From Setoptus koraiensis (taxonomy: Eukaryota > Animalia > Arthropoda): DNA of 64,000 nt. Below the pieces are notes generated by a model. That model was not told the origin of the DNA, made no database searches, and saw only the letters and a list, made by a program, of their open reading frames with translations. Shown here piece after piece: positions 17,106 to 64,000 of the stretch. Each line of letters begins with the position of its first letter. Position 1 is the first letter of the stretch. Where the stretch lies: assembly GCA_048013815.1 (NCBI GenBank), contig CM106585.1, forward strand, positions 17,670,001 to 17,734,000, written 5' to 3'. The position numbers and the translations under genes were made by a program.

Positions 17106-20100
17106 TCTTTTAATTATGCCTGATATCGGATAAAAAATTGTTGTTTCAATAATCCAGCCAACAGGTGAATTTGTGTGCAAGGTGTGATCCCTGTGATGGT
17201 ATTACGACGGATAATATAACATTAATATCACAATAGTGCCATAATACACACATAGTAATATCGTGATGGCGCTATAAAGTTTGCCATAAAGTTTTCACGA
17301 TCATAGGGCTGTGTCAGAGCTCATGAGTCATGAGTGCAGACTGTTTGGTGTGAGTGATGCTTGAGTCGCGTCAGACGATATATCCGTCACATATCCGCTT
17401 AACTGGCGATCAGATCAACGAAGCCGTCGCGCGCTGCAACAATTGCTGCAGCAGCACATTGAATTGATACAGCGGTTGGCGGTGGATAATTGAACAATTG
17501 CTACAATTGCTTGTTGTGAGTTGTTGTAGCAGTTGATTGCCGGCCGAGTAAGATTGTGCGATTTATACATGTAGTTGCATTGTTGTTGTGATTGTCGAGA
17601 CAGCGCGCGTGGACGTTTGTTCGTTTGACGGATCACAATTTGCGATTCACCGATTGCGATTCACCAATTGCGATTCACAGGGGATCCAGACGGGCGAGCG
17701 TGAGCGCGAGAAAACGGATTGCATAAGAGAACGGATAAAGCTGCTCTCTGTTTGATTACTCATGATTGCAAATTACTGTGAGACAGTGCCAATCAATTAA
17801 TCAACTGTTACAATTACAATTGTTGTCATGTTACAACATGATGTTACTAACATGATGTTTTATACAATTTTATATGACGCAACGAGTGGTGGGTTGCCCA
17901 TTTAAATTGATTACTCATTAGCGGCCAACGACAGTGTTGTTGTGGCTGGTAATTACAGTTTGCAATTTGCAATTGTCGCTGTGCAGTTGTTGCCGTTGTG
18001 CGGTTGTCGTTGTGCGGTTGCCGTTGTGCGGTTGCCGTTGTAACAGTTGGCTCCTCGATCAGTTGCAGTTTACCGTTACATAACGCCATTGATTAGTTGT
18101 AGCATTGTTGTTGACGCCAGGCCCGAGGCGTCTTAATTATTCCAACACTGAGATGGATATTGGCTATTTTTGCCAGCGAGTGTGTGTTGTGTGGTTGCAA
18201 ATTGCAACGGTTTGATTGTTATGAGTTAGTTAGTTAGTTAGTTACAACAAGTTACAGGTAACGATTGTTGATTCGCACAACACAGTCGTGTGCAGATAAA
18301 GCGAATGTAGATCTGAAATAATTATTTTTGTGCGTAGGCAACTGCAGTTTGGCTCATCAATTAGATTATCAATGGGTGATGGTCACTATCTGCCTGAATG
18401 GCCTAGCCATAGTCAGCTGTTTTTGTGCTGACCTTACTTGTCTTTGGCTTCATCTCTGCGTCTCTGCGTCTCGTTGGCCGCTTGTCTCTTGAAATGGCAA
18501 GTGATTTACCTGGCCGGCAACAAGTGTTGGCACAGGTGAGCTCGACGCTCGACGCTCGTCGCTTGTCGATTGTCGAGCAAACAACAGACTGCGAACTGAA
18601 CAGAGACACAACGACCAACTCTTTGTTTTTGTCTCTCTCTCTCGCTCGCTCGTTTGTGTGTCGTCTCTGCGGCCAGCAGTCAGTCATTGGTTGAGATTGA
18701 TTGATGATTCTCGCTTCTTATCTCTCTCTGAGTCTCGCCAATCTCAGGTGAGTCGCCGCTCAGGTGAGTCGCCGCTCAGAAGAGTCGCCGCTGAGAGGAG
18801 TCGATGCAGCAGTGGCGCCAGCAACAAGCATAGAAATGGAAATGGAAATTGCCTCTGTCTGTGGCCTCTGCCTATCGAGTCAACAGTGTGTATTAGACAG
18901 TGTGTAGTATATGCCAGATAGACGGCCAGCGACACACAAATCGTTGTGGCGGCATCTTGGCGACGGAGGGCCGGCAGCCACTGCTAAGCTGGCATGTTCA
19001 TTAAAAGTGGATTACAACAACACTTCATTTTAGCCTTATGCCAACGAATACACACACAAACAATCAATGGGCACACAATTGATTTCCTCCTTCTTTTATC
19101 GCTCTCGCTCTTCCATTTGTAATCTTGACGTTCCCACGATTCGCGCACTCACCTGTCGCTTCTCAGATCTTTACTTTCGGCTGTTGCGCTGTCGAGAGGC
19201 ATCTCTCGATCGCCCGATCGCTCGTTCTTCCGATCGTTCGAGCGTTCGTTCGTTCGTTCGTTCGTTCGTTCGTTCGTTCGAGCGTTCGTTAGTTCGAACG
19301 GCCGAACGGCCGAACGCTCGCTCGTTCGATCGCTATCGATCGCATCCGGCCAGACGCACGGGTCACTACAATAGACCAGCGCACCAATACACTCATCCGC
19401 ATTGAGTCTTGATCTTGCTCAATGCAAGTTGCATTGCTCAGCGCGAGCAACTGACCCAACATCGCGAATATTGGCGCGAATATTGGCGCGAATATTGGCG
19501 TGAATATCGAACGAGAAAGTTGGCTCGATCTGGCCAATTTCGGCCGCCGATAGCCGGTGATTCGAGCAGCGATCTGTCTCGCGAATCGCGATCGAATGGA
19601 CACTGTCCACTGGCGAGATATTGAGATTTGTCCGTTGCGAGCGATCGGTCAAGCGGCACAATAGCCATTGAGACCGTTGGACGGGCCAGCTCGGCGTTGT
19701 TAGCTTACAATGCGAATGACGCTCATGACGATCTCAGATAATGAGTCTGCGAGCAACAATTTGAGCATGAATACGCAATGAATGCAGCGACAAAGGCAAC
19801 CACGCCAACAACAGCAACAGCAACAACAGCAACCGCCGAGAAGAATAATGGCAACAAAACGACATGATTAATAATCAATGAAAGTGTGTAATTTATTTTT
19901 AATTGGTCGCCATCATCGAAGCGCCGAATCCTCGCCGGTCGCCGACGCACGGTAACAAGCTATTAGTAATGGCACCGATTGGCCAGACTAATTAATCATT
20001 ACATTATTATCGTTATTATTATTACCATTGCCATTATCATGTTTGGCTGGCATTGGCCCACAGCTCGGCTCATTAGAGACAACTCATTAGGGATGACTTT

Positions 20101-47282: not shown

Positions 47283-47827
47283 ATGGCACATAACACACTA
47301 GGGACACATTAATCCAGGTAGGCAATGTGCATTGAATTTATTATAAATTATCTAGTCTTATTGTTTCAAATCAATGTCATCGTGAAACTATCCTCTATGT
47401 GGTCTGTTATTTGTGAACACATCATTCTATCTATTCTCAGTAGTTTATATGATGGATCAATCATTGATTGTTGAATTTTGTTTCATTACCGATACACATT
47501 GTATATGTATATATATATATAAATATTCTATAGGTGCTTGTAGAATGATAGTTTATCTATAAACCGTTGTTTAATTGTTGAATGTTTGTTCAATGTGTGG
47601 ATTGGTGTTTTGTTAAATCCATCACAGTCATCTTATCTGTCCTCATACATGATTAACCTAGACAAATTACATGTCTAAGTGTGGACACACCGCGACAAAT
47701 CCGTGTATCTATCAAATAATTGTTTGTAGTAATGTTCGACGATACGGCCTCAATCATGTAATATAAGCAGTAGACGCAAATTAGAGAGACCATCAAATAA
47801 GAGATATGGTTACTGGATCCTATTCAT

Positions 47828-47833
47828 AATAAA
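47828..47833 (+). promoter_or_regulatory. Possible polyadenylation signal of the furrowed-like gene
   Basis: AATAAA about 550 nt after the stop codon in an AT-rich 3' region; no transcript support. Confidence 0.3.
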
Positions 47834-48151
47834 GATACTGATATTGATAAATATGTTGATATCAAGACAATTTTACGTGTTCTCCCGTCCCCAGGCCTCA
47901 TTTCTTTTCCGGCTTTCAGGCTTCAATCTTTAACGCTTTGTTTTATTGGGTCGACTGTAGGATTGGTGTTGCTTGACTTGAGATCGCCCTTCTAACAAAT
48001 ACATCTAACTTGTGAGGATACAGGCATCTCCGAGCTAACAATCTAAGTTACACTTGTAACCTGACAACTTGTGAGTGACGTTTAATGTTAGGTGTTAAAT
48101 CTGTTGTCCGAGAACTGGGTTGTTGTAGCGAACTGGGCGTAGTTTCGATCT

Positions 48152-48266
48152 GGGTATTTTGGGTATTTTTGGGTAGAGTATAGTACCCTGATACCCGAAT
48201 AGGTATTCATAAGATGTAGAAATTTACGGTTTTCGAGTTACCTGAGGTACCGCACAGTGGGCGTTT
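48152..48266 (+). repeat. Partial third copy of the module left-end sequence (GGGTATTTTGGG...CAGTGGGCGTTT), cut by the gap
   Basis: Aligns colinearly with 62025-62139 and, more loosely, with ~50050-50170. Confidence 0.85.
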
Positions 48267-48766
48267 NNNNNNNNNNNNNNNNNNNNNNNNNNNNNNNNNN
48301 NNNNNNNNNNNNNNNNNNNNNNNNNNNNNNNNNNNNNNNNNNNNNNNNNNNNNNNNNNNNNNNNNNNNNNNNNNNNNNNNNNNNNNNNNNNNNNNNNNNN
48401 NNNNNNNNNNNNNNNNNNNNNNNNNNNNNNNNNNNNNNNNNNNNNNNNNNNNNNNNNNNNNNNNNNNNNNNNNNNNNNNNNNNNNNNNNNNNNNNNNNNN
48501 NNNNNNNNNNNNNNNNNNNNNNNNNNNNNNNNNNNNNNNNNNNNNNNNNNNNNNNNNNNNNNNNNNNNNNNNNNNNNNNNNNNNNNNNNNNNNNNNNNNN
48601 NNNNNNNNNNNNNNNNNNNNNNNNNNNNNNNNNNNNNNNNNNNNNNNNNNNNNNNNNNNNNNNNNNNNNNNNNNNNNNNNNNNNNNNNNNNNNNNNNNNN
48701 NNNNNNNNNNNNNNNNNNNNNNNNNNNNNNNNNNNNNNNNNNNNNNNNNNNNNNNNNNNNNNNNNN
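48267..48766. other. Assembly gap (500 N)
   Basis: Run of N. Confidence 1.
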
Positions 48767-48780
48767 TTTACTATTTGAGC

Positions 48781-49083
48781 ATGAACGGAGAAGACTTTCA
48801 AGGTAACACGACCAAGAGTGCACGAAAGTCACTAAAAACAAAAGCTGTTAAAACTGGACTTGGTCCAAGGAAAACTTCATCATCACTCGGTGTAAAATCT
48901 ACGCAGGAAACGAAAGGATTGGGCCCAAAATCTTTTAAAAGCCTTGCCGGCAAGAAGTCTGTCAAGAGTATCGTCGCCCCGAAATCTGTTAATAGCATCG
49001 TCGGCGCGATATCTGTTAATAGCATCATCGACCCGAAATCTGTCAAGAGCATCGTCGCCCCGAAATCTGTTAGAAGCCGATAA
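48781..49083 (+). CDS. Small Lys/Ser-rich basic protein with an ARKS motif and 9-aa repeats (KSVKSIVAP); histone-tail/H1-like; frame is open into the gap
   Basis: TTKSARKSLKTKAVK...; 27-bp tandem units at ~48957-49070; no stop between the gap and ATG 48781. Confidence 0.55.
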   Translation: MNGEDFQGNTTKSARKSLKTKAVKTGLGPRKTSSSLGVKSTQETKGLGPKSFKSLAGKKSVKSIVAPKSVNSIVGAISVNSIIDPKSVKSIVAPKSVRSR

Positions 49084-49457
49084 ATGATTATTTTCTCACT
49101 GTCAAAATAGGTCGAAATAGACGAGCCAAAACGCTGCTAAAACTGTGCCTCTCTATCGTTATCGTAGTGTGTATGTTGAATACAGTAGTACAATAGTGTG
49201 TCAATTGTGACAAATTATTGTTTACAACATTTACGACTGCAACTCTATAGAATATCTCGAAATTGATTATCAAAACTCATTCGACTCCAAAGTCGAGTAG
49301 GTGTTACAATCACCCGCGTTTCAAACATACTTTATATTTGTGTCTTAACGTTTTGTATGCATGGCTAGGTTAGAATAAAAAGTCTATAATGCAAAGTATA
49401 ATTATCATTGGAGCATTTTTTTGTGGTTAATTCAATCTCAATTAACGATTCAGTCAG

Positions 49458-49715
49458 TTAATTTTTGCAGATATGCAAAACGACCGATGATTGGTTGATC
49501 AGAAGTCTCTTTCTTGCATCTGCACTGGTTGTGAACGTTCCATCAAAATTACCAATCACGAGATTTTATCCGGAATTATACACTGTCAAGAGTATCGTTT
49601 CATTTCTATCTGGGACATCCGTTTCCAATTTTCTTTCCTCATTCAATTTTTGATAAACATTCTTATTGGGCAATACTGGTGACGATTTCGTGCTGTTGAG
49701 TTCATGCTTATTCAT
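49458..49715 (-). pseudogene. 85-codon frame with one internal TAA; C-terminal half resembles a NUMOD1/IENR1 helix-turn-helix
   Basis: My translation: MNKHELNS...ETILLTVYNSG*NLVIGNFDGTFTTSADARKRLLINQSSVVLHICKN; internal stop at 49566-49568. Confidence 0.3.
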
Positions 49716-50007
49716 TGGTATTATGGAGGGTATTCCGTCTTACGAACAAAGAACGAGCGAAACAAACAATGGACCTGGCAGATTTAGATTGTTGCGTCGT
49801 CTATTGTTTGTCCATGGCCACTTGTTCTATGTGCGATCGGCTAGAACAATCAATTATTTTTTTTTATATAAATAGGGCAATATGAATAGCATATTCTTTA
49901 CAAGAATATGCTATTTATATTGCCCCAATTTCTCTATGGCTTCTATAATGGCTTCTCAGGAGGAACTGTCTACAGTCCCATGACGCTGATTGGGTACAAT
50001 ATATTCT

Positions 50008-50995
50008 GGGGCTTCTCCGAAAAGACGACACACCACAATTTGAGTATTTCGGGTATTTATGGGTAGGGTATGGTGCCTTGATACCGGAATGGGTATTCCG
50101 GAAGTGCGGAAATTTCCCGTACCCGAGATACCCGAGATACCGCATACTGGGTATTTTAGGGTATTTGAGGGCATATTGACAGTACAGTCGGCCGTACTCA
50201 CCCGCACGGACATCGGGTAGGGTACTAAGGTCTTCGCATCGGTGGTAGATTGTACCTAGAAGCTAAAGCAAGAAAATAAAAGTGATCAAACTGAAGAGGC
50301 GTGACCAATGCGCACGGCACGAATTGAAACCGCGCATAATCAATTTAAGGATATATCCCCAATGTATATATCCCCCCATGTAACACCCCAGGCGAAGCCT
50401 GACGTCCTAGCCTCGACCAGGACTCCTACTAATAAAGGTTCAGGGCCAGGGTTCAAGGCAGTACAATAGCCCTTCCGTCTGCCATGCATCTTGGGCCCGG
50501 GCCGGAGAAGGGGTTCGGCCTCCAGTCGTCCACGCCTACGGCCTGCGGCCTCCGGCGGGACGACTGACGGCCACCTAACTGAAAAAGATTCTTCCCGTGG
50601 ACTGGGAGTCGAATGGGCGGGGCCCGTGATCGGATTTCTTCTATATAGGGTGTGAATTTGCTTCAGAGACCGTAACTAGTTGGTAGTACAGCCGAATAAC
50701 ATCAGTTTTAAAACCGGAAGTGTGACTTGCATATATTGTAGAATATCTCGCGAACGAGTTGATGTAGAAGATTTATCTAAACGCTATCACATAGATAGCA
50801 TGTGGATCTAGACAATCATACAAAAATTGAAGGTCTGAGGCCCCTCTGAGGCCCGAAAAATGCATTTTTCTATAACTCCGGAAGTAGAAATTTCCGCACT
50901 TCCGGACCACTTTATTTGTTCTTTGGGGCCCCTTCGGAGCCCATATGTGAAGTTTGAAGGAAATCGGAGTGTGTCGTCTTTTCGGAGAACACCCC
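50008..50995. mobile_element. Module 1: ~1-kb non-coding unit with nested inverted repeats (MITE- or HINE-like)
   Basis: Perfect 21-bp IR 50013-50033/50969-50989, perfect 20-bp inner IR 50097-50116/50887-50906, GC-rich hairpin core 50390-50572. No TSD identified. Confidence 0.7.
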
Positions 50996-51491
50996 AAACT
51001 TGTAGGACTATCATGTCCCAAAGCTAAATTAGCTCTCTTTTGCATAGATTGGTGTCACTCTAGGCATTGATCTGTGTCAATAGCATGCTTGACAAGTTAG
51101 TTTAGCATATTATACAAGCACTGGATGACATTCAAACATAATTATCACTCTTGAAGTGATACAAATGATCAATTAAGCCGGTCATCTGTCAATGGCAAGT
51201 TAATCAGAAGCACCTATTGGTAAAATTTGACTATTGACCAGCTTAATTTGCCGCCAATACTCATAGACTGATGTTCATGATTGACATTGTTGACTTTATT
51301 GAACTGATTCAATTGAACCTTGTTGTGTATACAGTTCTAAATAGTAATGTTGCACAAAATTTTGCGCCAGTTTTTCGCTCATGCTCGTGTGCAAACTTGA
51401 TGGACTATCATGTCCCAAAGCTAAATTAGCTCTCTTTTGCATAGATTGGTGTCAATCTAGGATTGATCTGTGTCAATAGCATGCTTGACAA
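50995..51491 (+). repeat. 397-bp satellite, ~1.25 units
   Basis: GGACTATCATGTCC at 51005 and 51402 (spacing 397); same unit as 54113-55412. Confidence 0.95.
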
Positions 51492-51650
51492 TAGGAATTT
51501 ACTGATGATGATCTGAATGAATTAGGACAGTCATGTCTCTGTTGGGAAACGGTCAAGGCTGAGATCTGTTTGGTTTTTATTTTATTCATATATCTTTGAT
51601 ATAGTGGTAACAGAAATGAGATTATAATCCTCATAATAGCAGATATATCG

Positions 51651-52244
51651 TCAGAATCGGAGATCCGGTAAATCACTCATACTAATTACTTTTGCGGCCC
51701 ATTTTGAATACTTGTCGATCGGTGCTGGTGTAGGAACACTACCTCCATCACTGTTCATCGTGTTCGCCAAGATGTCGATATCTATTATTTCTCGACTATT
51801 ATTGGGAAGCAGTTTAAATCGCTCGAATCCGAAATTATCAGCAAGTTTCCAATATGCTTTCTTTTTATATGGAGCATCCATGACTCGAAGAGGCGTCTTA
51901 TGGATGTCAAGTTGGAAGAAAAGTAATAGGACTAGCATATGAGCGGTTGCCGACGCTTTTTCGTCAGTGCTCCCAATCCCTGTCACGTTGCATCCCTCTC
52001 CTATGCCTTCGAAAATGAATTGAAGACGCCTGCCTACGAACCCCTTATCTGCGAATTCTCGCACCGTCAATCCTAATCCTCGACTTAAATAGTCTATCGT
52101 TTCCTTTGGAGTTCTCCTATCTTCAGGCCTACCGGTGACCTGTACTCTTGGCCATCTGTCTCCAGTATTTCTATCCATGATCTCCAGTCGGCGACTTCCG
52201 AAGAAATTTTCATCTGCTGGTGGAAGAGCTGCGTCGTCAGTCAT
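51651..52244 (-). CDS. 197-aa protein with a putative divergent double-stranded-RNA-binding domain (dsRBD)
   Basis: aa45-110 TPKETIDYLSRGLGL-TVREF-RLQFIFE-VTGIGSTDEKASATAHMLVLLL follows the alpha-beta-beta-beta-alpha dsRBD pattern (P..L..., G.G.sk..A...Aa..l..L). It lacks the KKxAK RNA-contact lysines. Confidence 0.45.
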   Translation of the reverse strand: MTDDAALPPADENFFGSRRLEIMDRNTGDRWPRVQVTGRPEDRRTPKETIDYLSRGLGLTVREFADKGFVGRRLQFIFEGIGEGCNVTGIGSTDEKASATAHMLVLLLFFQLDIHKTPLRVMDAPYKKKAYWKLADNFGFERFKLLPNNSREIIDIDILANTMNSDGGSVPTPAPIDKYSKWAAKVISMSDLPDLRF

Positions 52245-52338
52245 TATTACTTTTTTTATGGAGAAGTTTTATTTTATTAGCGCTTAATTTTAATTAAGGG
52301 CTTATGATGTAGTGTTGTTGGATCCTATAAATCACGCA

Positions 52339-52533
52339 TGAATATCCACGCACGGTATGATGGTGGATACTTAATTCTTGCATTTCATAGGATATTCACC
52401 AATTGTGCTATGGTGATTCACGCGCTGTGTGCTTGTGAATACTCCGACTTTGTATGCCAGTGAATATCCACGTACCGATTTATTTGTGGATATTCACAGT
52501 TTTCGATCTTGAGAGTCACGCGCTGTGTGCTTG
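52339..52533. repeat. Array of GTGAATATCCAC/GTGGATATTCAC motifs upstream of the dsRBD-like ORF, including a perfect 12-bp stem
   Basis: Stem 52460-52471/52486-52497 with a 14-nt loop; further partial copies; CACGCGCTGTGTGCTTG occurs twice. Confidence 0.8.
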
Positions 52534-52828
52534 CATACATTAGCACTAGCATAATCAGTGCTTAGTGAGTGTGTAGGCAGGAATGTGCTTGGGAGGTGGG
52601 AGGTGGGAGGTACACTCAAGCTTGAGATTCAAAAGTTCGTCCACCTCCCAAATACACATTTACTAGGGAGGTGGATTGAATCTTGAGTCTCGGGCTCATG
52701 TCTAGTTAGGAGGTGGACCGAAGCTATAACGAGAATTGAATTTTAAGTCCAGAGCTCATGCAGAGGTTGATGTATTGTGAGGAGGTGGATCGATGCTATA
52801 CACGATCTGTGCAAGTCTTATCAATTTT

Positions 52829-53095
52829 CTGTTTCTAGTATTGGCGCTATAGGCCATATTGTGGCACATGTGCCCATACATTATGTGCGATTTTCGAAAC
52901 TGTTCTGTTTCTAGTATTGGCGCTATAGGCAATTCTGGATCATGTTAGCTCATTCAATACATGTGATTTCTGATCACATGTGCCCATACATTATGTGCAA
53001 TTTTCGAAACTGTTCTGTTTCTAGTATTGGCGATATAGGCCATTTTGTGGCACATGTTCTTCCACAGTATGTTCAATTTTCGAAACTGTTCTCAC
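52829..53095. repeat. 76-bp minisatellite, 3 units (second has a 34-bp insert)
   Basis: CTGTTTCTAGTATTGGCG starts at 52829, 52905 and 53015. Confidence 0.85.
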
Positions 53096-53491
53096 CAGGA
53101 TAAATTCTTGAAAAACTTTCTAGAGACAGCTAGCACTTATCACTTCTTAATAAACTGTCCAAACCTCTAAGATTGTTCACTGGAAAAATTAAGCGCTCTT
53201 ATACTGGTATAATCAGTATAACTTGTTCTATATTTTTTCTATTTTATTTTATTTTACTTTATTTGTTTAGTGAGTGGGTTACAAAGGCAGTTATCGATAC
53301 ATATATGTGATTTGGTAACAGTTGTATGCGTATTAGACATTTTTCCGTTTGAGCATGAGAATAGCAACGTGACAAATTGGCTGTGAATTACAATTACACC
53401 GTTTAATTGTATCTCTTTCTATTTCTAGATTTTGGGGGAAGGGACAATGTTTCTGGTGAAACAAAAGGGTTTACCCCCCACTGCTCGGGAA

Positions 53492-53795
53492 GGACAGTAT
53501 TGTCCACAAAACTTCTACTTAGTGATTTGAAAATCGCGCCCATCTTCAAGTATTTACGGCGGTCCTAAGGACAGTGCTGTCCCAGATCATTCCGGTGATA
53601 ATTTATCGGCTCCGTCCACTCTCACGAGGACAGTCTTGTCCCAACAGACGAAGTTGAGGTAGTTTGAGTGGGACGGTTCTGTCCAGAAACATTCTAGCTC
53701 TTTTTTGGCGAGGCATATTGATTAATGTAAATAATATAATTGATAGTAATTCTGCTTATATATAATATCTGATTCATGCCGGGATACGGTTGTCC
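53492..53795. promoter_or_regulatory. Cluster of GGAC-N6-GTCC palindromes separated by unique spacers
   Basis: Exact sites at 53492, 53569, 53628, 53672; one-mismatch site at 53782. Function inferred only. Confidence 0.6.
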
Positions 53796-54112
53796 AACTT
53801 AAACTATCTAACTTTTTTCTAGAATAACTTCTGATCCCCACGGTAGGGGGCGCTCAAACTTTTCTTTCGAAGAATATGAGTCAAAGGTAATCTGTTGGCG
53901 TATATATTCAGTGATAATGATAATAAAGAGACTTATTCTGGATGATATGATGGTGGTGCTGACGATGAAGCGAATGATCGAACTTTTTCATCTCGCTTGT
54001 TTAATGATTTGGGACATGCATGTCCCGTCCATGACGCCATGCATTGCAAAGCGCCATTGAGGTAAGATAATTCGTGGATTGTTCCCGCTCCTTTGTTACG
54101 CCCTCTCATGAA

Positions 54113-55412
54113 GTCACTCTAGGCATTGATCTGTGTCAATAGCATGCTTGACAAGTTAGTTTAGCATATTATACAAGCACTGGATGACATTCAAACATAA
54201 TCATCACTCTTGAAGTGATACAAATGATCAATTAAGCCGGTCATCTGTCAATGGCAAGTTAATCAGAAGCACCTATTGGTAAAATTTGACTATTGACCAG
54301 CTTAATTTGCCGCCAATACTCATAGACTGATGTTCATGATTGACATTGTTGACTTTATTGAACTGATTCAATTGAACCTTGTTGTGTATACAGTTCTAAA
54401 TAGTAATGTTGCACAAAATTTTGCGCCAGTTTTTCGCTCATGCTCGTGTGCAAACTTGTAGGACTATCATGTCCCAAAGCTAAATTAGCTCTCTTTTGCA
54501 TAGATTGGTGTCACTCTAGGCATTGATCTGTGTCAATAGCATGCTTGACAAGTTAGTTTAGCATATTATACAAGCACTGGATGACATTCAAACATAATTA
54601 TCACTCTTGAAGTGATACAAATGATCAATTAAGCCGGTCATCTGTCAATGGCAAGTTAATCAGAAGCACCTATTGGTGAAAAAATACAATTGACCAGCTT
54701 AATTTGCCGCCAATACTCATAGACTGATGTTCATGATTGACATTGTTGACTTTATTGAACTGATTCAATTGAACCTTGTTGTGTATACAGTTCTAAATAG
54801 TAATGTTGCACAAAATTTTGCGCCAGTTTTTCGCTCATGCTCGTGTGCAAACTTGATGGACTATCATGTCCCAAAGCTAAATAAGCTCTCTTTTGCATAG
54901 ATTGGTGTCACTCTAGGCATTGATCTGTGTCAATAGCATGCTTGACAAGTTAGTTTAGCATATTATACAAGCACTGGATGACATTCAAACATAATTATCA
55001 CTCTTGAAGTGATACAAATGATCAATTAAGCCGGTCATCTGTCAATGGCAAGTCAATCAGAAGCACCTATTGGTAAAATTTGACTATTGACCAGCTTAAT
55101 TTGCCGCCAATACTCATAGACTGATGTTCATGATTGACATTGTTGACTTTATTGAACTGATTCAATTGAACCTTGTTGTGTATACAGTTCTAAATAGTAA
55201 TGTTGCACAAAATTTTGCGCCAGTTTTTCGCTCATGCTCGTGTGCAAACTTGTAGGACTAACATGTCCCAAAGCTAAATTAGCTCTCTTTTGCATAGATT
55301 GGTGTCACTCTAGGCATTGATCTGTGTCAATAGCATGCTTGACAAGTTAGTTTAGCATATTATACAAGCACTGGATGACATTCAAACATAATTATCACTC
55401 TTGAAGTGATAC
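54113..55412 (+). repeat. 397-bp satellite, ~3.3 near-identical units
   Basis: GGAC-N6-GTCC anchors at 54461, 54858 and 55255. Confidence 0.97.
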
Positions 55413-56612
55413 TTTCCGATCCAACAAGGATCCGGTATCCAACAAACCACCAGGTATATCTTCCTTGATTTCATAGACTTCTTTGTCCTGGAATTTTTCC
55501 ACTATTTTCCTCACGGATCTTTCGAATTTCTTTTTTAATATACAAAATTTTTCAGCCTTTTCTTGACAATCAATAGGGCATAATTCGGTACACTCATTTC
55601 CACACTCGGTGATCCGAGCAATATATTTTTCGATATCATTTATGAACGATAGATTCCCTTCAAATGGCTCGAAGAATTGTGGGGCGCCGAGATTTGTTAT
55701 ATCGATCGGACATCTCAGAAGACTGTTGAGAGTATCAATTTGATTGGTATGGTTGGATCCTGAGTTACAATAAACAATCAGTGTCTGGTCATTTGCCTCT
55801 GAGGGAGGATCTACGTCCATATTCGTCCCTTCGTTTGGACAAGACTGTCCTGAAGAATTGACGTCTGAACAATGTGAGCTAGGATCTGTGGGACCAGTTT
55901 GTCCTACGCCATCCTGTGACGGATGATCTCTGTAATTAGATTTATCTTGAGATGTTCCTTGTGTATCCTCATTTTGCTGCAACGGATGATCGACGTCTGA
56001 ACAATGTGAGCTTTCATCTGTGGGACCAGTTTGTCCTGCGCCATCCTGTGACGGATGATCTATGTAATTAGATTTATCTCGAGATGTTCCTTGTGTATCC
56101 TCATTTTGCTGCAACGGATGATCGACGTCTGAACAATGTGAGCTTTCATCTGTGGGACCAGTTTGTCCTGCGCCATCCTGTGACGGATGATCTATGTAAT
56201 TAGATTTATCTCGAGATGTTCCTTGTGTATCCTCATTTTGCTGCAACGGATGATCGACGTCTGAACAATGTGAGCTAGGATCTGTGGGACCAGTTTGTTC
56301 TACGACATCCTTAGTGGTTAAACGCTTTAATTGATCGAGAAAAGTTGCCATCATCGCATGTGCTTCTTCTATGGGGCCTGTACAATCATCATCCGGTTTT
56401 GGTGGTTCATACGGACGTATACTTCTTTCAGAATAAGTTAGCTCCTTATGCCTCTCTGAAATAATCTTGTTTTTAGAGTCGAAATTAAACAATTTCACTG
56501 AATAAACTATACGACCGTTACGTGAAATTTTTCCGTTGATGATTCCCGGCCAATATCCTTTAGCTGATCGCACCATAACTGGCCTATCTTTTTCTAAATA
56601 ATCGAGGCTCAT
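55395..56612 (-). CDS. 405-aa protein: N-terminal PWWP-like domain, 44-aa acidic repeats, Cys-containing C-terminal region; native C-terminus replaced by satellite-derived sequence
   Basis: From MSLDY: PVMVRSAKGYWPGII...YSVKLFN...SIRPYE...IEEAHAM matches the PWWP layout (VWaK..gypwWPa.I, y.V.FFg, l.pf, helix). The stop codon lies inside the satellite. Confidence 0.6.
   Translation of the reverse strand: MSLDYLEKDRPVMVRSAKGYWPGIINGKISRNGRIVYSVKLFNFDSKNKIISERHKELTYSERSIRPYEPPKPDDDCTGPIEEAHAMMATFLDQLKRLTTKDVVEQTGPTDPSSHCSDVDHPLQQNEDTQGTSRDKSNYIDHPSQDGAGQTGPTDESSHCSDVDHPLQQNEDTQGTSRDKSNYIDHPSQDGAGQTGPTDESSHCSDVDHPLQQNEDTQGTSQDKSNYRDHPSQDGVGQTGPTDPSSHCSDVNSSGQSCPNEGTNMDVDPPSEANDQTLIVYCNSGSNHTNQIDTLNSLLRCPIDITNLGAPQFFEPFEGNLSFINDIEKYIARITECGNECTELCPIDCQEKAEKFCILKKKFERSVRKIVEKFQDKEVYEIKEDIPGGLLDTGSLLDRKVSLQE
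55861..56300 (-). repeat. 132-bp (44-aa) coding tandem repeat, ~3.3 units
   Basis: GQTGPTD(E/P)SSHCSDVDHPLQQNEDTQGTS(R/Q)DKSNY(I/R)DHPSQDG(A/V); each unit carries a GGAC-N6-GTCC site (55891, 56023, 56155; 56287 has one mismatch). Confidence 0.95.
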
Positions 56613-56761
56613 TTTAAAAAATGAATAAATAAATAAATTTATGTTGATAATAAGAAACAATAGCGATAGTGTTACAAGCATACAGCATGCAGCATCTAAT
56701 CAGTTGAGATTGCTGTGTAATTCGCGCCCTTTATTTGAAAAAAAAGAAGGACCTTATGGTT

Positions 56762-56864
56762 CTTGCGACGGTTAACCTTTTGAGAGTCAATCGTTGCTGG
56801 GACTCGGTGGTCCTTGCGACGGTTAACCTTTTGAGAGTCAATCGTTGCTGGGACTAATTGGTCC
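56762..56864. repeat. 51-bp tandem duplication between divergent ORFs; each unit is a hairpin plus a GGAC-N6-GTCC site
   Basis: GCGACGGTTAACCTTTTGAGAGTCAATCGTTGC twice; sites at 56800 and 56851. Confidence 0.9.
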
Positions 56865-56970
56865 TACATACAATAGCAGACGAAAAATACACATTCCGTC
56901 ATTTGCGTGAGTGCGTAACTGCGTTATCTCTTATTATTCTTTTTTCTTTACATCTTTTACGAATAGCACA

Positions 56971-58064
56971 ATGGCAAACAAAGAGAACAAAGAAAACAAA
57001 CAAAAAAAACCCAGAACCTACATTAGAAATCCGTATGTTTCTGATGTAAAATTCTCTGTTCCAGTTCCAAATAAAAATATAACCCATTTAATCATTTTTG
57101 GTATCATCCTGCGATCAATTGGTACAAACAAGTAAGCCAAGAGTTGTGTGAAGACTACAATTGTCACATCTATCTAAATAGTGAAAATGGTCTCGGATCT
57201 GATATCATAGCCTGTATTTTTTTGTACGGTCAGTATGATTGCTGTCGGAAGAAGTCACAACAACAACCCAAATTTATTGGAAGAACAATACTTCAAGCCT
57301 TTTATTTGATGAGTGGCTCAGCAAATACTCATTGTTTTGGGGTCAATCAAAGAGAATACCTCAAATACAAAATACCACCAAGTTCCGATCAAACATTATC
57401 AGACATCCCATGGGAAGTCATTAGGACTCATTCCGATAACGAACGACCCGACAAAAACCATCATGAGAATAAGTTTTGTTTCGGGTCCGCCGACTATAAC
57501 TACTTCGATTTGAACGAAGATTTGAACGACTCAGAGACTAGCGCAATGGATAGTGAATTTGACATCTCAATCTATAAAAATCCTTGGATCGGTGATGGGG
57601 AGCCGCCGGATATTGTGGCTTTCCACCAATATAAAATAACTCATAAAGAATTACATCTTTTATCATCAAATGAATGTCTCAATGATATGATCATTGATTC
57701 CTATTTCCACCTCATTCAACAGACTAGGATGCAGGACAACAAAAGCGTGGATATACTTGTATCACCGACTACGTTCTGGCGAAAATTAGATCGACTCAAA
57801 TCCGACGAGGAAATTCAAGAGCTCACAAAGACAAATTATATTGGGGACGAATCCTTTCAGCTCTACCACCGTGTGTTCATCCCGATCATATTATCCGACA
57901 TGAAGCATTGGATTTTGGCTGTCGTGGATACGGAGAATCGTATTGTCACATTGTATGATAGCTCGAAAAGTGGCAGAAAGGACATTCTATCCAAGATCCA
58001 AACATATATAACAATGGATGCCAAACAACGACGAATTCTTTCACATCAGTGGCAATTGATGTGA
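56971..58064 (+). pseudogene. Ulp1/SENP (peptidase C48) SUMO-protease-like gene; frameshifted near 57075 and truncated before the catalytic Cys
   Basis: ITHKELHLLSSNECLNDMIIDSYFHLI, SPTTFW, VFIPII...KHWILAVVD...IVTLYDS (His at 57906, Asp at 57957), ending ...QWQLM* at the inversion junction with no QxNxxDCG. The ATG 56971 frame needs one extra A in the A5 run at 57073-57077 to join the 57075+ frame. Confidence 0.8.
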
Positions 58065-58411
58065 CAATACGATTCTCCGTATCCACGACAGCCAAAATCC
58101 AATGCTTCATGTCGGATAATATGATCGGGATGAACACACGGTGGTAGAGCTGAAAGGATTCGTCCCCAATATAATTTGTCTTTGTGAGCTCTTGAATTTC
58201 CTCGTCGGATTTGAGTCGATCTAATTTTCGCCAGAACGTAGTCGGTGATACAAGTATATCCACGCTTTTGTTGTCCTGCATCCTAGTCTGTTGAATGAGG
58301 TGGAAATAGGAATCAATGATCATATCATTGAGACATTCATTTGATGATAAAAGATGTAATTCTTTATGAGTTATTTTATATTGGTGGAAAGCCACAATAT
58401 CCGGCGGCTCC
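58059..58411 (-). repeat. Inverted copy of 57599-57951 (Ulp1 core)
   Basis: 353-bp reverse-complement match, no differences noticed; 107-bp spacer at 57952-58058. Confidence 0.95.
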
Positions 58412-59186
58412 AGGACAAACTGGTCCCACAGATGAAAGCTCACATTGTTCAGACGTCGATCATCCGTTGCAGCAAAATGAGGATACACAAGGAACATCTC
58501 GAGATAAATCTAATTACATAGATCATCCGTCACAGGATGGCGCAGGACAAACTGGTCCCACAGATGAAAGCTCACATTGTTCAGACGTCGATCATCCGTT
58601 GCAGCAAAATGAGGATACACAAGGAACATCTCAAGATAAATCTAATTACAGAGATCATCCGTCACAGGATGGCGTAGGACAAACTGGTCCCACAGATCCT
58701 AGCTCACATTGTTCAGACGTCAATTCTTCAGGACAGTCTTGTCCAAACGAAGGGACGAATATGGACGTAGATCCTCCCTCAGAGGCAAATGACCAGACAC
58801 TGATTGTTTATTGTAACTCAGGATCCAACCATACCAATCAAATTGATACTCTCAACAGTCTTCTGAGATGTCCGATCGATATAACAAATCTCGGCGCCCC
58901 ACAATTCTTCGAGCCATTTGAAGGGAATCTATCGTTCATAAATGATATCGAAAAATATATTGCTCGGATCACCGAGTGTGGAAATGAGTGTACCGAATTA
59001 TGCCCTATTGATTGTCAAGAAAAGGCTGAAAAATTTTGTATATTAAAAAAGAAATTCGAAAGATCCGTGAGGAAAATAGTGGAAAAATTCCAGGACAAAG
59101 AAGTCTATGAAATCAAGGAAGATATACCTGGTGGTTTGTTGGATACTTTTGACAAATTCAGAACATGTTGGGAACTGAGAAGATAA
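58411..59186 (+). pseudogene. Inverted, 5'-truncated copy of the PWWP-like gene (58411-59146 = reverse complement of 55435-56170) that keeps the probable native C-terminus ...LLDTFDKFRTCWELRR*
   Basis: Identical translated repeats and C-terminal region; PWWP part missing. Confidence 0.9.
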
Positions 59187-59227
59187 ATAAAAATTGAGTA
59201 TCATCCTTCCGCATTTAATCGTTGCAG

Positions 59228-59368
59228 GGACCAAGTGGTCCTGAGAATTCTACCAAGACAAGTCGAGAAAAACTAGGTAGTTATTTGTCCTAGACATCTT
59301 AGGACAGACTAGTCCTCAGTTATCTGTTGAGACTATCTAGTCCTCCAGAATCTGAGACGGATTAGTCC
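59228..59368. promoter_or_regulatory. Second cluster of GGAC-N6-GTCC palindromes
   Basis: Exact sites at 59228 and 59302; AGAC-N6-GTCC variants at 59330 and 59355. Confidence 0.55.
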
Positions 59369-59384
59369 TCAATTTAGCTAAGAG

Positions 59385-59638
59385 ATGCCTAGAGAAACAC
59401 CAGATGTTCATATTTTTGATAACATGATCCAAATTATCCGGAGTAGCCTGATTCATAAAAAATGATGGGAGTGCATATACTTTTTTTTTGCGCGTTTGGT
59501 TATCATGAATAGATAAAAATTAATTATCTCGTCGTTTAGCCATCCTGCGGGTTTGAGTCTTCTGATGTCTCTCACTGTGACTTGATAGTTTAGAACTTTT
59601 CGATGAGGACCGGCTGGGACTTCTTTGTCCCTGATCAA
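59385..59638 (-). pseudogene. Fragment of a SENP1-like Ulp1 domain (N-terminal part), frameshifted in an A9 run and truncated
   Basis: YQVTVRDIRRLKPAGWLNDEIINFYLFMI closely matches the SENP motif ITRKDIQTL..LNWLNDEIINFY. After a -1 shift at 59481-59489 it continues KVYALPSFFM...VIKNMNIW, then no catalytic residues. Confidence 0.75.
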
Positions 59639-59731
59639 ATTCCTTGAATATCGGTTTCAGATGATAAAAGGAGAATGATTCTTCAGATATTTTATCGCCA
59701 TATATAATTGGTGCAGCGTAGGGTGCTGTTG

Positions 59732-60463
59732 TTAGGCCATTAAAAATGCGTCTAAACAAGAATGAGTACAGGTTTCTTCTGCATTCTTTGAGCCTTTCAT
59801 GATATGACAAAATGTCAAAGAGTTCAACATTGGAACTCCATACATCTCCTCAAGCCACAAAGCTATGATTGATGCTTCTTCAGTTGTTATAGTCATGTCG
59901 CTATGACATGAGTAAACGGTTGCAATAGTTATGTTTGTGGACTGAACTAGAATCAATATAAAATGTCCTCTCATTTCGATCGGATGTATGTTTCCTGACC
60001 CGAGGAGTGGAAAAAATTTTCCGCTTTCCGTTGTTTCCGCTCCAATCTTCAGCGATCGAGAGAGTTTCGGGAAATATGATGCATCTCCCTCATTTTTGCC
60101 GAATTTTTCATTCAACTTTTCCCTCAGTGCTCCTATAAATCCATAGAAGTCTTGATCGGCAAGGCAACTTTTTGGGTAATTAGGCTCAAAAAAGCCCTTC
60201 TTCTTAAATTGTTCTTGCTGAACGAACACATGCGGTTCATTATGAGCCGCGTATGTGCCCTTTCCTCTTATGAGAGATTCTTCGTCGGTTTTTTTCTCGT
60301 TTATAATGATTGTCTCATCATTGGCATTTAATGTTAAATAATTAATGAACATAAAATAGAGGCGAAAAAATTTAAAATGATCCCCCATATAGGGGTTGAT
60401 ATCGTATTTTTCTTCTGCCATGGTATTATTTCTCAGTCGATATCGACTCTCTATGACAGTCAA
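59732..60463 (-). CDS. 243-aa ORF with a highly divergent C48/Ulp1-like (possibly inactive) protease fold
   Basis: IHPIEMRGHFILILVQSTNITIATVYSC resembles Ulp1 PI....HW.L.vvd......I..yDS. The catalytic Asp is not evident and the Cys segment is ambiguous between two frames. Same frame as 59453-59638. Confidence 0.45.
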   Translation of the reverse strand: MTVIESRYRLRNNTMAEEKYDINPYMGDHFKFFRLYFMFINYLTLNANDETIIINEKKTDEESLIRGKGTYAAHNEPHVFVQQEQFKKKGFFEPNYPKSCLADQDFYGFIGALREKLNEKFGKNEGDASYFPKLSRSLKIGAETTESGKFFPLLGSGNIHPIEMRGHFILILVQSTNITIATVYSCHSDMTITTEEASIIALWLEEMYGVPMLNSLTFCHIMKGSKNAEETCTHSCLDAFLMA

Positions 60464-60562
60464 TCGTAATATAACAGCTCAAAACTACTTTCCGCAATCA
60501 ATTTCTGAGGATCTAGATCAAGAGAGCTCGTGAACAGTATCTCTCTCTCCTTATCTCTCTTT

Positions 60563-60590
60563 ACTCGCTAGTTCAGGTGAACTAGCGAGT
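60563..60590. promoter_or_regulatory. Perfect 12-bp hairpin in the divergent intergenic region
   Basis: ACTCGCTAGTTC-AGGT-GAACTAGCGAGT; a GGAC-N6-GTCC site follows at 60671. Confidence 0.55.
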
Positions 60591-60904
60591 CAGCCGACGT
60601 TGTTCAGATCAGATGAACTGACACATAATGAGTGCCGTGCGCGAGGGGACTCTCTAGTTTTTTTTGATCAGGACACAGTAGTCCGCTAATGTGAAATTAT
60701 CTTGTTTTTTTTATTACATTATACGAGTATGGTCCTGTGTTGACGTTAGATATAGTTGTTCTTTATACATGTCGGTTGATCCGATCCTGAGTCGTACATC
60801 AATTAAGTACAATTAAGTTTCGCATTAGTCATCTTAGGCAATAACGAGAGTTAGAAAAAACACTACATTGTTACATTCACTATACCCAATCATATACAAA
60901 AGGA

Positions 60905-61732
60905 ATGGCGAGAACTAAAGACACCAGAGATAAAAATCTACGCAAGAGTGTAGGGAGTACGAGAATAGCCGACCGCACTTTGGGGGCTGCAAAATCAACT
61001 CCAGATGCGCCTCCCGCGGCCGCAAGAAGTACATCTAATACATCCATCATGCATGTTCAAGCCCAAGAGTCTGACCCCAAGACTCCAGGAAGTTCAAAAT
61101 CGAAAACTTCACAAGCTGTTACCGCAGGCACGGATGATCCGTCGAAGAGATCACGATCGCAACAGACCGTGCCTTATATTTTACAAATTGGAACTATATT
61201 TCTAGACACTTTGATGTCCCAGATGAACAAAATTCACCAGTATCATTGTGCTGAACAATTGGCGGGATGCAAGAGACAAGTTCTGTTCGGTAGTACAGAA
61301 GGCTGGTTTACGAAACCATCCCAAGAGCTTTGCCGACAATTCAGTTGTCATGTCTTCTTGGTATCAGAGTCCACACTAGCTGATGACATAGTCTTGGTTG
61401 CCCTATTTTATGGTAGCAAAACTATTGGTCGTTTTAACGATGTGAAATTGATTAAGGATCTGGACCATGTTATTTCACAAAAGTTCGTAATTTTCACACG
61501 GTCTACGTCAGTGAGGAAATTAGGCGACAAATTCATGCGAGAGATAGCAAATAAGATTCCATTTGGCTCACAACAGAACCCCGAAAGTCTATATGGTAGA
61601 TTCGTCCGGCCTATGATATATGCATCCAAGACATCAAATCAGCCCACTAGGAATAAAACAATGGCAGAAATGTTCGCACGTATCGAGACCAAGACTGAGA
61701 AGAGTCAAAGAAAAAAGTCCGTCCAAGAATGA
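60905..61732 (+). CDS. 275-aa protein with a histone H3-like N-terminal tail but no histone fold, plus an unassigned ~90-aa domain shared with the 57-kb Ulp1 protein
   Basis: MARTKDTRDKNLRKS...GAAKSTP: R2, T3, K4, T6 and K9 in register with H3; intact ATG-to-TGA ORF. Confidence 0.75.
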   Translation: MARTKDTRDKNLRKSVGSTRIADRTLGAAKSTPDAPPAAARSTSNTSIMHVQAQESDPKTPGSSKSKTSQAVTAGTDDPSKRSRSQQTVPYILQIGTIFLDTLMSQMNKIHQYHCAEQLAGCKRQVLFGSTEGWFTKPSQELCRQFSCHVFLVSESTLADDIVLVALFYGSKTIGRFNDVKLIKDLDHVISQKFVIFTRSTSVRKLGDKFMREIANKIPFGSQQNPESLYGRFVRPMIYASKTSNQPTRNKTMAEMFARIETKTEKSQRKKSVQE

Positions 61733-61975
61733 CAGGGATGAAGCGGAACGCGCAGAGGACAAGTAGGTCCCTGATCAATAATGCTCAAATTCCATACAAT
61801 ATGTTACAATTCTAATAAATATTCAATGAGAATTTATTGATAGATGAAACTGATAATCTTCTTCACTCTCTACTGGTGATTCATGAAACGATCGCTATTC
61901 GCCATCTATGATTCTAGCATCAGTAACAATTCTTTGAGCACCAAGATAACAGTGTGCCCATAGGATTGCTATTCA

Positions 61976-62970
61976 CCACGAAAAAGTTTTGGTTATAGTC
62001 CCGAAGAGCGCCACACTTTTTTCGGGGTATTTTGGGTATTTTTGGGTAGGGTATTGTACCCTGATACCGCGATGCGTATTCCGGAAGTGCGGAAATTCTT
62101 CGTTCCCGAGATAACCGAGGTACCGCTCAGTGGGCGTTTCACGGTACCCGACAGCCGCTTGGAGATTTGCGGGTAGTTTTTCGGGGAAATTTTTGGTACC
62201 TCATCAAGGTCGCATCCAATACAGCAAGGAATGGCAGAAATAGGCCTCAGCTTCGCTCAGCTTGTGATGGGTCTGAGAACTCGGCCTGCGGCCTCGTAAT
62301 CTGGAGGCCGTCACATCTCCGTCGTCGCTCCCGCGACGACTCCGTGCGACGGGAACCCTTCGGGTAGGGTTGATGAGCGCTTCGGGTATCGGGCTGCGCC
62401 CTCTACCCTCCGCTCACGTGACTGCAATCCATACCCTGTTAAAAGAGATGATCAGACTGCGAACTGTGAAGCCCAAGATTTCACAGCATCCCATCGAATG
62501 CGCAGGCTTCAGATTTAACAGTTCATTAATCAGCGTAATTCCGACCGATTGCGCAAGTATTGCTTCTGTCAGGTCGTCTGATGACGGCATTCCACTGAAC
62601 AAAGACCCGTTCGCTGAACTCGCTAAGATCATGCGCATAGAATAGCAAGCAAGAGGTGAAAACCAACAAAAACGGCCCTTATCAGGGCAACCCCACTTTT
62701 AACAACTTTCTCTTGGTTTTTCCCAGAGATCTCGAGAACCGCGCGTCCAACATGGCTGAAATTGATGGCGTTGTGCTCAGCATGCTTGAATCTACCAGTG
62801 TACCGAGTTTTGAGTCTGTATCTCAGAGTTTTATTAAAACCGGAACCGGAAGTTTCCGCACTTCCGGACCACTCAATTTGTACCAAGGGGGCCCTACGGA
62901 CCCTATGTGTGAAGTTTCATCTCAATAGAAGTGTGGCGCTCTTCGGGACTACACCCAAAGTTTTTAGTGG
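61976..62970. mobile_element. Module 2: ~1-kb non-coding unit homologous in architecture to module 1, same orientation
   Basis: Perfect 23-bp IR 61996-62018/62929-62951 (imperfectly extending to 61976/62970), 16-bp inner IR 62080-62095/62853-62868, GC-rich hairpin core 62240-62410. Confidence 0.7.
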
Positions 62971-63165
62971 ATAAGGTGATGAGCCATCCAATAGATCCGG
63001 CGAGGATCTATTCATGGTTGTTTATATATATGTTAAATTATATGTTAAAAGATATTTCTAATAGATATTTCTCTATATTTTGGCTGGATGGGTAAAATAT
63101 GGCATTCGACTTTCTTTTGTGGTGCTACTATCAGATAAACATCCGAGTCTGGCTCTACATCAACA

Positions 63166-64000
63166 ATTTAACTTTGAGACATGTTAGTCCTACAAGTTTG
63201 CACACGAGCATGAGCGAAAAACTGGCGCAAAATTTTGTGCAACATTACTATTTAGAACTGTATACACAACAAGGTTCAATTGAATCAGTTCAATAAAGTC
63301 AACAATGTCAATCATGAACATCAGTCTATGAGTATTGGCGGCAAATTAAGCTGGTCAATAGTCAAATTTTACCAATAGGTGCTTCTGATTAACTTGCCAT
63401 TGACAGATGACCGGCTTAATTGATCATTTGTATCACTTCAAGAGTGATAATTATGTTTGAATGTCATCCAGTGCTTGTATAATATGCTAAACTAACTTGT
63501 CAAGCATGCTATTGACACAGATCAATGCCTAGAGTGACACCAATCTATGCAAAAGAGAGCTAATTTAGCTTTGGGACATGATAGTCCATCAAGTTTGCAC
63601 ACGAGCATGAGCGAAAAACTGGCGCAAAATTTTGTGCAACATTACTATTCAGAACTGTATACACAACAAGGTCCAATTGAATCAGTTCAATAAAGTCAAC
63701 AATGTCAATCATGAACATCAGTCTATGAGTATTGGCGGCAAATTAAGCTGGTCAATAGTCAAATTTTACCAATAGGTGCTTCTGATTGACTTGCCATTGA
63801 CAGATGACCGGCTTAATTGATCATTTGTATCACTTCAAGAGTGATAATTATGTTTGAATGTCATCCAGTGCTTGTATAATATGCTAAACTAACTTGTCAA
63901 GCATGCTATTGACACAGATCAATGCATAGAGTGACACCAATCTATGCAAAAGAGAGCTAATTTAGCTTTGGGACATGATAGTCCATCAAGTTTGCACACG
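63166..64000 (-). repeat. 397-bp satellite in reverse orientation, at least 2.1 units, runs off the window
   Basis: Reverse complement of the 54113-55412 unit; anchors at 63177 (AGAC variant), 63574 and 63971. Confidence 0.97.

Follow-up and report, generated by a model that had tools for sequence, protein, structure and literature searches.

Gene Content of the Locus

The analyzed window comprised 64,000 bp of the Setoptus koraiensis genome assembly (GCA_048013815.1, contig CM106585.1, positions 17,670,001 to 17,734,000 of the forward strand); all positions below are those within this window. Host DNA was followed, behind an assembly gap, by DNA that contained at 51–64 kb a block of genes and tandem repeats sharing a spaced palindrome, GGAC-N6-GTCC (Table 1). 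An earlier sequence-only reading had described the DNA from 48,152 onwards as one 16-kb selfish element in which nearly every open reading frame (ORF) pointed at silencing machinery. All of the ORFs it named were found at the coordinates given; however, the unity of the 16 kb was not confirmed, in view of a high-copy repeat fragment (48,149–48,266), the 500-N gap and a motif-free stretch (48,767–50,007, hereafter the ARKS block) that meets the rest through a terminal inverted repeat (TIR) element without a target site duplication (TSD). The silencing theme held for the Ulp1-type genes and was otherwise overstated, as the ARKS ORF was not shown to belong and the calls of a double-stranded RNA-binding domain (dsRBD) and of histone mimics were weak.

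Table 1. Features of the motif-bearing block and its surroundings (window positions).
Position	Strand	Feature	Family or comparison
48149..48266	+	High-copy GG..CC TIR repeat family, fragment at host contig end	79% to 62,022-62,139
48267..48766	.	Assembly gap, exactly 500 N	No contig cover in 4/4 runs
48781..49083	+	Basic ORF, 100 aa, 21% K+R, ARKS, 27-bp repeats, frame open to gap	
49657..50007	+	Decayed P4-ATPase (flippase) gene piece, cut by TIR element A1	PF16212
50008..50995	+	Non-autonomous TIR element A1, 988 bp, ~27-bp TIRs, no TSD, high-copy	
50996..51491	+	397-bp tandem unit, 1.25 copies, one motif each	
51005..63984	.	Motif block, 27 exact GGAC-N6-GTCC and 33 RGAC-N6-GTCY sites, continues past window end	
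51651..52247	-	ORF, 198 aa, weakly dsRBD-like, starts 30 bp from Helentron-type insertion	
52277..53236	+	HINE-like (non-autonomous Helentron-type) insertion, right end approximate	
53492..53684	.	Non-coding cluster, four motifs with four different spacers	
54113..55412	+	397-bp tandem array, 3.3 copies	
55395..56612	-	ORF, 405 aa: likely PWWP (1-100), 44-aa repeats, Cys-containing C-terminal part	
56757..56864	.	51-bp repeat, two exact motifs, between two divergent genes	
56971..58064	+	Gene: basic tail, domain X, Ulp1/C48 domain; frameshift near 5' end	
58059..58411	-	Exact 353-bp inverted copy of 57,599-57,951 (second Ulp1 sequence)	
58411..59186	+	Exact 736-bp inverted copy of 55,435-56,170, then different PWWP-type ORF C-terminus	
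59228..59368	.	Four clustered motifs, exact or near, in the spacer of convergent genes	
59340..60421	-	Decayed gene: divergent C48-like 229-aa ORF and Ulp1 fragment, then frameshift, truncation	
60905..61732	+	Uninterrupted ORF, 275 aa: H3-like start (MARTK, RKS), linker, domain X	
61991..62956	+	Complete non-autonomous TIR element A2, 966 bp, non-coding, GG..CC ends, 8-bp TSD	
63165..64000	-	397-bp array, inverted orientation, at least 2.1 copies, continues past window end	

Spaced Palindromic Motif

All 27 exact matches to GGAC-N6-GTCC in the window lay within 51,005–63,984 (~13 kb), against an expectation of 0.37 (mean of shuffles) and a shuffle maximum of 2; none of the 100 shuffles reached 27, and an exact scan found no site in positions 1–48,100 or in the ARKS block. 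In the non-redundant DNA of the block (8,671 bp after subtraction of duplicated sequence, both TIR elements and the HINE-like insertion), 16 sites were found, while simulations gave none in 96 cases out of 100 and one in the other four. Comparison of spacer lengths from 0 to 12 revealed enrichment at 6 only, with 15 different spacer sequences among the sites, R favoured before the site and A/T favoured just inside it. R/Y flanks accompanied GAC-N6-GTC at 33 of 33 sites in the block versus none of the 7 in host DNA, and variants at codon third positions did not occur; consequently, the constraint acts on the DNA and not on a peptide, and an origin of the motif as a by-product of Gly-x-x-x-Pro codons was ruled out on the same grounds. 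The half-sites lie 10 bp apart, that is, one helical turn, a spacing that suggests a dimer contacting one face of the helix.

The motif was present in three unrelated tandem units (397, 132 and 51 bp), in two non-coding clusters and in ORFs, and absent from the TIR elements, the HINE-like insertion, the 27- and 76-bp units and the ARKS block. Thus, the shared palindrome proposed in the sequence-only reading was borne out, with strict 6-bp spacing, whereas its statement that all repeats carry it applied only to the first three units. The five 397-bp units compared were identical at 385–395 of 397 positions, and arrays of this unit flank the core in opposite orientation, with outer ends beyond view. 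Earlier screens (exact k-mers, unspaced palindromes and palindromes with 3-bp arms) gave nothing above chance; the class with 4-bp arms and a 6-bp spacer was the sole one to stand out, its level being reached in 4 of 200 simulations. Another candidate for a shared motif, CCGGAAGT, was rejected, being confined after the gap to the TIR elements. A scan of viral contigs for triple motifs returned 123 loci, with spacers fitting Gly-Pro codon repeats at 999 of 1,052 sites, and none of these loci had a tblastn or blastn match to the block.

Protein-Coding Genes of the Block

The ORF beginning at 57,075 on the plus strand (ORF 57075) matched PF02902 with E = 4.8e-8 and 33.5 bits (curated cut-off 20.7), Ulp1 being the only one of the proposed silencing-related domains to exceed a curated threshold. 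Its best relative, P0001 (462 aa, from a Logan contig), was 53% identical and intact, scored 72.6 bits with PF02902 and aligned to eukaryotic SENP1, the closest solved structure, with E = 2.6e-18 and with His, Asp and Cys in place. ORF 57075 ended ahead of the catalytic Cys motif because the sequence folds back at the inverted duplicate, and the His-Asp-Cys triad was incomplete in all window copies. Further downstream, an Ulp1 fragment (59,456–59,656) was joined in frame through two stops to the 229-aa C48-like ORF, which aligned weakly with the C48 profile at the His strand (P = 0.049; 4 of 200 shuffles reached the score). Of the three Ulp1/SENP-like sequences noted earlier, ORF 57075 was confirmed as C48-type, but the three are not independent genes, since two are one duplicated gene and the third is a fragment; the partial decay noted there was likewise seen in the frameshifts, stops, truncations and foldback of the Ulp1-type genes. 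It should be noted that CLND was found in the window copy (57,666–57,690) and in P0001, and WLND in SENP1 and the third fragment. The Trp of WLND has a role in substrate specificity, and CLND in its place may reflect an altered one. Separately, the ENA protein P0004 showed an apparent fusion of a SET-like and an Ulp1 domain, and the spacer that separates the divergent C48-like gene from the gene with the H3-like start contains a hairpin with a 13-bp stem (60,563–60,590).

The joint of the rearrangement at 58,411 is separated from a motif by 2 bp. The exact foldbacks, which show short microhomology, are similar to amplification chimeras, and the exact inverted duplications may be real rearrangements or may be such chimeras or assembly artefacts. 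A 22-bp filler with a locally templated repeat (55,413–55,434), which joins the 397-bp array to the inverted duplicate, looks more like in-vivo end joining than like a simple chimera.

A region of ~100–150 aa common to ORF 57075 and to the ORF beginning at 60,905 (ORF 60905; E = 3e-12) was newly found by sequence comparison and is an unnamed family, designated domain X. It is fused to Ulp1 in ORF 57075 and stands alone in P0002; P0001 and P0002 were its only two relatives among 1.84 billion representatives (2 of 4,544 candidates in the profile search). A word-based search for homologues of ORF 60905 retained 0 of 859 candidates, and an Atlas search with domain X was blank. The structure model of domain X had low confidence (predicted local distance difference test, pLDDT, 43.6). 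In the comparison with VIA structures, clan CE made up 17 of the best 50 rows (Z 2.8–4.0), including Lpg1148, which we take to belong to this clan, and the top two rows were SLFN proteins (Z 4.3 and 4.2); among 44 Foldseek rows, six were clan CE (E 0.9–1.6). Profile alignment by hhalign was not significant, and 6, 14 and 99 of 200 shuffles reached the scores in three weak shuffle tests. On balance, we lean slightly towards domain X being a dead protease fold, as modelled.

MARTK, at the start of ORF 60905, occurred once after the gap versus 0 times in 96,196 codons before it, and P0001 and P0002 both begin with a basic MAR(K/R)S tail. The H3-tail and ARKS mimics proposed earlier agree with histone tails in short motifs, but neither sequence had a PDB match at E ≤ 10, and the start of ORF 60905 is regarded as a putative H3-tail mimic.

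For the 405-aa ORF, the top three Atlas clusters were PWWP (0.86–0.87; 169 of 256 features for 0.87), where a score below 0.9 counts as a lead only; there was no Pfam or PDB match, and a word-based homologue search retained 0 of 3,639 candidates. The PWWP-like reader of the sequence-only reading is accordingly kept as likely, on these sequence features, and not as established. The 44-aa repeats of this ORF are coded by the motif-bearing 132-bp unit, and its C-terminal part is cut at the 397-bp array. The dsRBD-like ORF had a Staufen dsRBD as its best PDB hit (E = 0.11, weak), which is what stands of the earlier dsRBD call, whereas Pfam was blank and the fold search with its model (pLDDT 41.9) gave a best Z of 2.5 with no dsRBD among the matches. 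The beginning of the same ORF (52,100–52,220) faintly resembled RADIALIS, a Myb protein (E = 1).

This gene content may be read as transposon cargo without an anti-silencing role, with the motif bound by a transposase, Rep or a host factor and Ulp1 serving as conventional cargo in transposition or repair. Ulp1 occurs in Ginger1 and Mutator elements, where a role in transposition is proposed (PMC2836005), transposases bind clusters of motifs (10.64898/2026.08.24.746577), and the joint at 58,411 is adjacent to a motif. On the other hand, the motif extends over 13 kb, between and inside genes and not just near ends, and the H3-like start, the PWWP lead and a duplicated domain X would be superfluous for such cargo, which makes this explanation unlikely.

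A fast-evolving cluster of host genes in repeat-rich chromatin, under-amplified and partly mis-assembled, with the motif as a host regulatory site, is considered very unlikely. It would agree with the intact relatives P0001 and P0002 in other data sets and with the exact foldbacks with short microhomology, as in amplification chimeras. Meanwhile, the motif is absent from 48 kb of host DNA, coding GC is lower in the block (38–45% vs 53–54% in two host exons), most of the genes are broken by old-looking stops and frameshifts, and the dsRBD-like ORF had no cover in two sequencing runs (X4 and X6). Nor were the ORFs resolved into ordinary host genes by any search run.

Distribution and Depth of the Block DNA

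DNA of 55.4–62.0 kb was found in six of the 12 listed runs, with word fractions of 0.93, 0.92, 0.79, 0.48, 0.48 and 0.34, and no RNA data set was listed among the runs containing it. Runs X1 and X2, with near-equal depths, may be the source data of the assembly, and a separate study probably produced X4 and X5 as a single data set; with 48% of the words, this study is the one independent source of related DNA, with a diverged or partial copy. Comparison of contig depths covered 47–54 kb, and contig depth is not a copy number. The contig of the host exon had depths of 144 (X1), 148 (X2), 193 (X4) and 9.8 (X6), that of 53.2–53.8 kb 37, 38, 17 and 0, and that of the dsRBD-like ORF 44, 43, 0 and 0, respectively, with no mismatch in X1 and X2; for the 397-bp unit, the depth was ~260 in X1 and X2 and 22 in X4. 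Taken as no more than a hint, these ratios point away from a single-copy locus that is fixed.

The low dose bears on the possibility of a supernumerary (B-chromosome-like) or germline-limited block, in which motif-sharing repeats and chromatin-altering proteins would favour its own inheritance, as in the paternal sex ratio (PSR) chromosome of Nasonia. Relative to the host gene, depth was ~0.3 in X1 and X2 (37–44 vs 144–148) and ~0.1 in X4 (17–22 vs 193), host repeat families are inserted in the block, no mobility gene was seen, and the attachment to host DNA is by a fixed-size gap only. Different PSR repeats share a palindromic motif, and PSR has a low dose, carries chromatin-related genes and requires a chromatin-altering gene (PMC10462710). 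However, contig depth gives no copy number, amplification under-covers repeat regions (10.1101/2023.04.17.537128), and a polymorphic insertion in pooled animals would yield an equal ratio. Unlike PSR, moreover, the block had no haploidizer-like gene that could be found, its repeats are low-copy (the 397-bp unit at ~6× block depth, with no large satellite), and it is known from sequence alone; we regard this explanation as quite improbable.

An endogenous or co-sequenced DNA virus, or the DNA of a second organism, mis-scaffolded beside the host gene, would likewise account for the low and sample-dependent depth and for the 500-N gap. Viruses are known to use clan CE proteases, dsRBD proteins and histone mimics. 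Against this stand two high-copy repeat families at host depth inserted in the block, a protease closest among solved structures to eukaryotic SENP1, and the lack of any viral hallmark family in the 122 ORFs scanned and of any locus related to the block in viral, metagenome and prokaryote contigs, so that we regard this origin as very improbable. The related DNA in a second study also speaks against a contaminant, the refuting case named in the sequence-only reading, leaving a low probability for contamination by a co-sampled organism.

Later Insertions and the Junction with Host DNA

About 3 kb of the post-gap DNA are later insertions, namely two TIR elements and one Helentron-type element. 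Element A1 is flanked by the ARKS block on the left and by a 397-bp unit on the right; given the lack of a TSD and these unlike flanks, two loci appear to have been joined at A1 by recombination or mis-assembly. The TIRs of A2 are 28 bp long with 26 matches. The HINE-like insertion has 13-bp subterminal inverted repeats at 52,279 and 53,185, a hairpin at 53,199–53,221, a T-run and inner 76-bp repeats, is high-copy and has loose contig ends at 52,277; these features agree with the Helentron/HINE anatomy of 12–15-bp subterminal inverted repeats, a 3' hairpin, T-rich ends and dispersed copies (PMC4067079). Summed contig depths were in the thousands and above for A1, the HINE-like insertion and the fragment at 48,149. 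The TIR elements and the HINE-like insertion were rejected as ends of the gene block, as they lack the motif, are high-copy and have their own TSD. Contig depth was also raised at 53,646–53,882 (685–832 in X1 and X2), which suggests a further small repeat family.

In the ARKS block, the P4-ATPase piece matched PF16212 in two frames (E = 1.7e-6 and 4.1e-11), and a near-perfect hairpin with a 24-bp stem (49,875–49,925) was found inside it where the frame breaks. The ARKS stretch differed from matching contigs by 10–15 letters in ~820 and lay, in run X4, in contigs of 4,455 and 9,732 bp that were otherwise unlike 47–54 kb. The ARKS ORF is outside the motif block and may or may not be a member of the same family.

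Host DNA reached ~47.3 kb, its end being formed by a long exon that codes for Sushi repeats (Pfam E = 2.8e-34), presumably of a furrowed-like gene. A contig at host depth continued into the fragment at 48,149, and the depth check found no contig across 48,267–48,766. Fixed 500-N gaps are typical of Hi-C scaffolders; hence the order of host gene, gap and element is no evidence of adjacency. Contigs of X4 branched at 47,771 and departed from the window after 47,957 (window 47,742–47,957), so that populations differ in the DNA that follows the host gene. Elsewhere in the window, an intron-poor minus-strand ORF (16,344–17,201) resembled, as judged by eye, a BTB/T1 (KCTD-like) domain protein, and an Rfam search was blank.

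Discussion

The motif and the Ulp1-type genes of the block have counterparts in plants. In Arabidopsis, the VANC proteins of VANDAL elements, which are Mutator-like elements (MULEs) without TIRs, bind a short motif accumulated in the tandem repeats of the element and lift silencing family-specifically (PMC5735166), and KIU genes are VANC genes fused to an Ulp1 domain (PMC13317346). Similarly, several unrelated tandem repeats of the block share one short motif, Ulp1 is fused to another domain, and a cargo protein contains tandem repeats. Unlike in VANDAL, the motif here is a spaced palindrome that is also found in ORFs, the host is an animal, no MULE transposase or VANC domain was found in the window ORFs, PWWP-like, dsRBD-like and H3-tail-like genes are added, and function is assigned by analogy. 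Thus, the comparison with VANC made in the sequence-only reading was strengthened by the measured motif and the fusion of Ulp1 with domain X, whereas an anti-silencing function of the block is inferred, as are binding, the identity of the binder, protease activity, decoy roles and mobility.

Zisupton/KDZ elements carry an Ulp1 domain, and the block shares with them and with Ginger1 and Mutator a C48 protease as cargo. Ulp1 is common transposon cargo (PMC2836005); in Ginger1, it is part of the transposase, whereas the Ulp1 genes of the block are separate and joined to domain X. The local non-autonomous family with GG..CC ends and an 8-bp TSD recalls MULE or Zisupton among others (8 bp in Zisupton/KDZ, PMC12730594; TSD lengths compared from PMC6446971 and PMC12730594), but its members here are later insertions without the motif. 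The HINE anatomy and high copy of 52,277–53,236 likewise do not classify the gene block, this being an insertion without the motif and without Rep/helicase. The block cannot be assigned to MULE, Zisupton/KDZ, Ginger1, Helentron or a virus, as the ends and the mobility gene that would define its class either lie beyond the window or are lacking, and its likeness to VANC/KIU would be one of working only.

The block at 51–64 kb is best read, with a probability of roughly 0.45, as the rearranged cargo of a large selfish element with VANC/KIU-like self-recognition, the element probably being a DNA transposon with its mobility gene outside the window. An element-encoded dimeric protein would bind RGAC-N6-GTCY; the best candidates are the PWWP-type protein and the domain X proteins, the latter because of the analogy to VANC-Ulp1 fusions. 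Tethered in this way, the active Ulp1 encoded by an intact copy would remove SUMO from silencing factors. Decoy or reader roles would fall to the H3-like tail, to a protease-fold domain that may be dead, and to the PWWP and dsRBD-like proteins, so that only motif-marked copies would be kept open. As it has no complete protease, the window copy would rely on intact copies elsewhere. SUMO is needed for piRNA-guided silencing in flies (10.1101/533091, PMC10363806), and piRNA genes are present in one eriophyoid mite (PMC7738191), the relevance of which depends on the identity of the host, probably a mite. Taken with the VANC/KIU signs, these two observations make a motif-tethered de-SUMOylase with decoy and reader partners the simplest joint reading.

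Several observations weigh against this interpretation. Pfam found no transposase, Rep/helicase, reverse transcriptase, capsid or packaging family in any of 122 ORFs (all those of at least 45 aa in 47.3–63.3 kb, duplicate copies left out; the block continues beyond the window), in agreement with the earlier remark that no mobility gene is visible. Within the window, the gene block is bounded by no TIR or TSD and contains no known DNA-binding domain save the PWWP lead. The contig of the dsRBD-like ORF looks single, and multi-copy status of the block was not borne out; the inverted duplications may be artefactual. The dsRBD call goes back to one marginal Staufen match, the dead-protease call to a low-confidence model (pLDDT 43.6; Z ≤ 4.0) and to shuffle tests that gave a weak signal, and the H3-tail call to short motifs.

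A more far-reaching version is doubtful. According to it, the locus would represent an undescribed class of animal element that recognizes itself by a spaced palindrome dispersed over its DNA and resists silencing based on SUMO, histones and RNA, or else a supernumerary-chromosome driver in a haplodiploid. Its kit would consist of SUMO-protease folds, both active and dead, together with a PWWP reader and a decoy of the H3 tail, and the element would be an animal counterpart of VANC/KIU. A literature search, with subscription journals and Repbase outside its scope, found no element in animals in which a self motif occurs together with cargo of the SUMO-protease and histone-like kinds, while sequence-specific anti-silencing by transposons is documented in plants for VANC and TnpA (PMC5735166, PMC13317346, 10.64898/2026.08.24.746577).

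With a defined 14-bp site and a few candidate proteins at hand, the function of Ulp1 cargo for transposons becomes directly testable, as does the question of whether animal elements can exempt their own copies alone from silencing.

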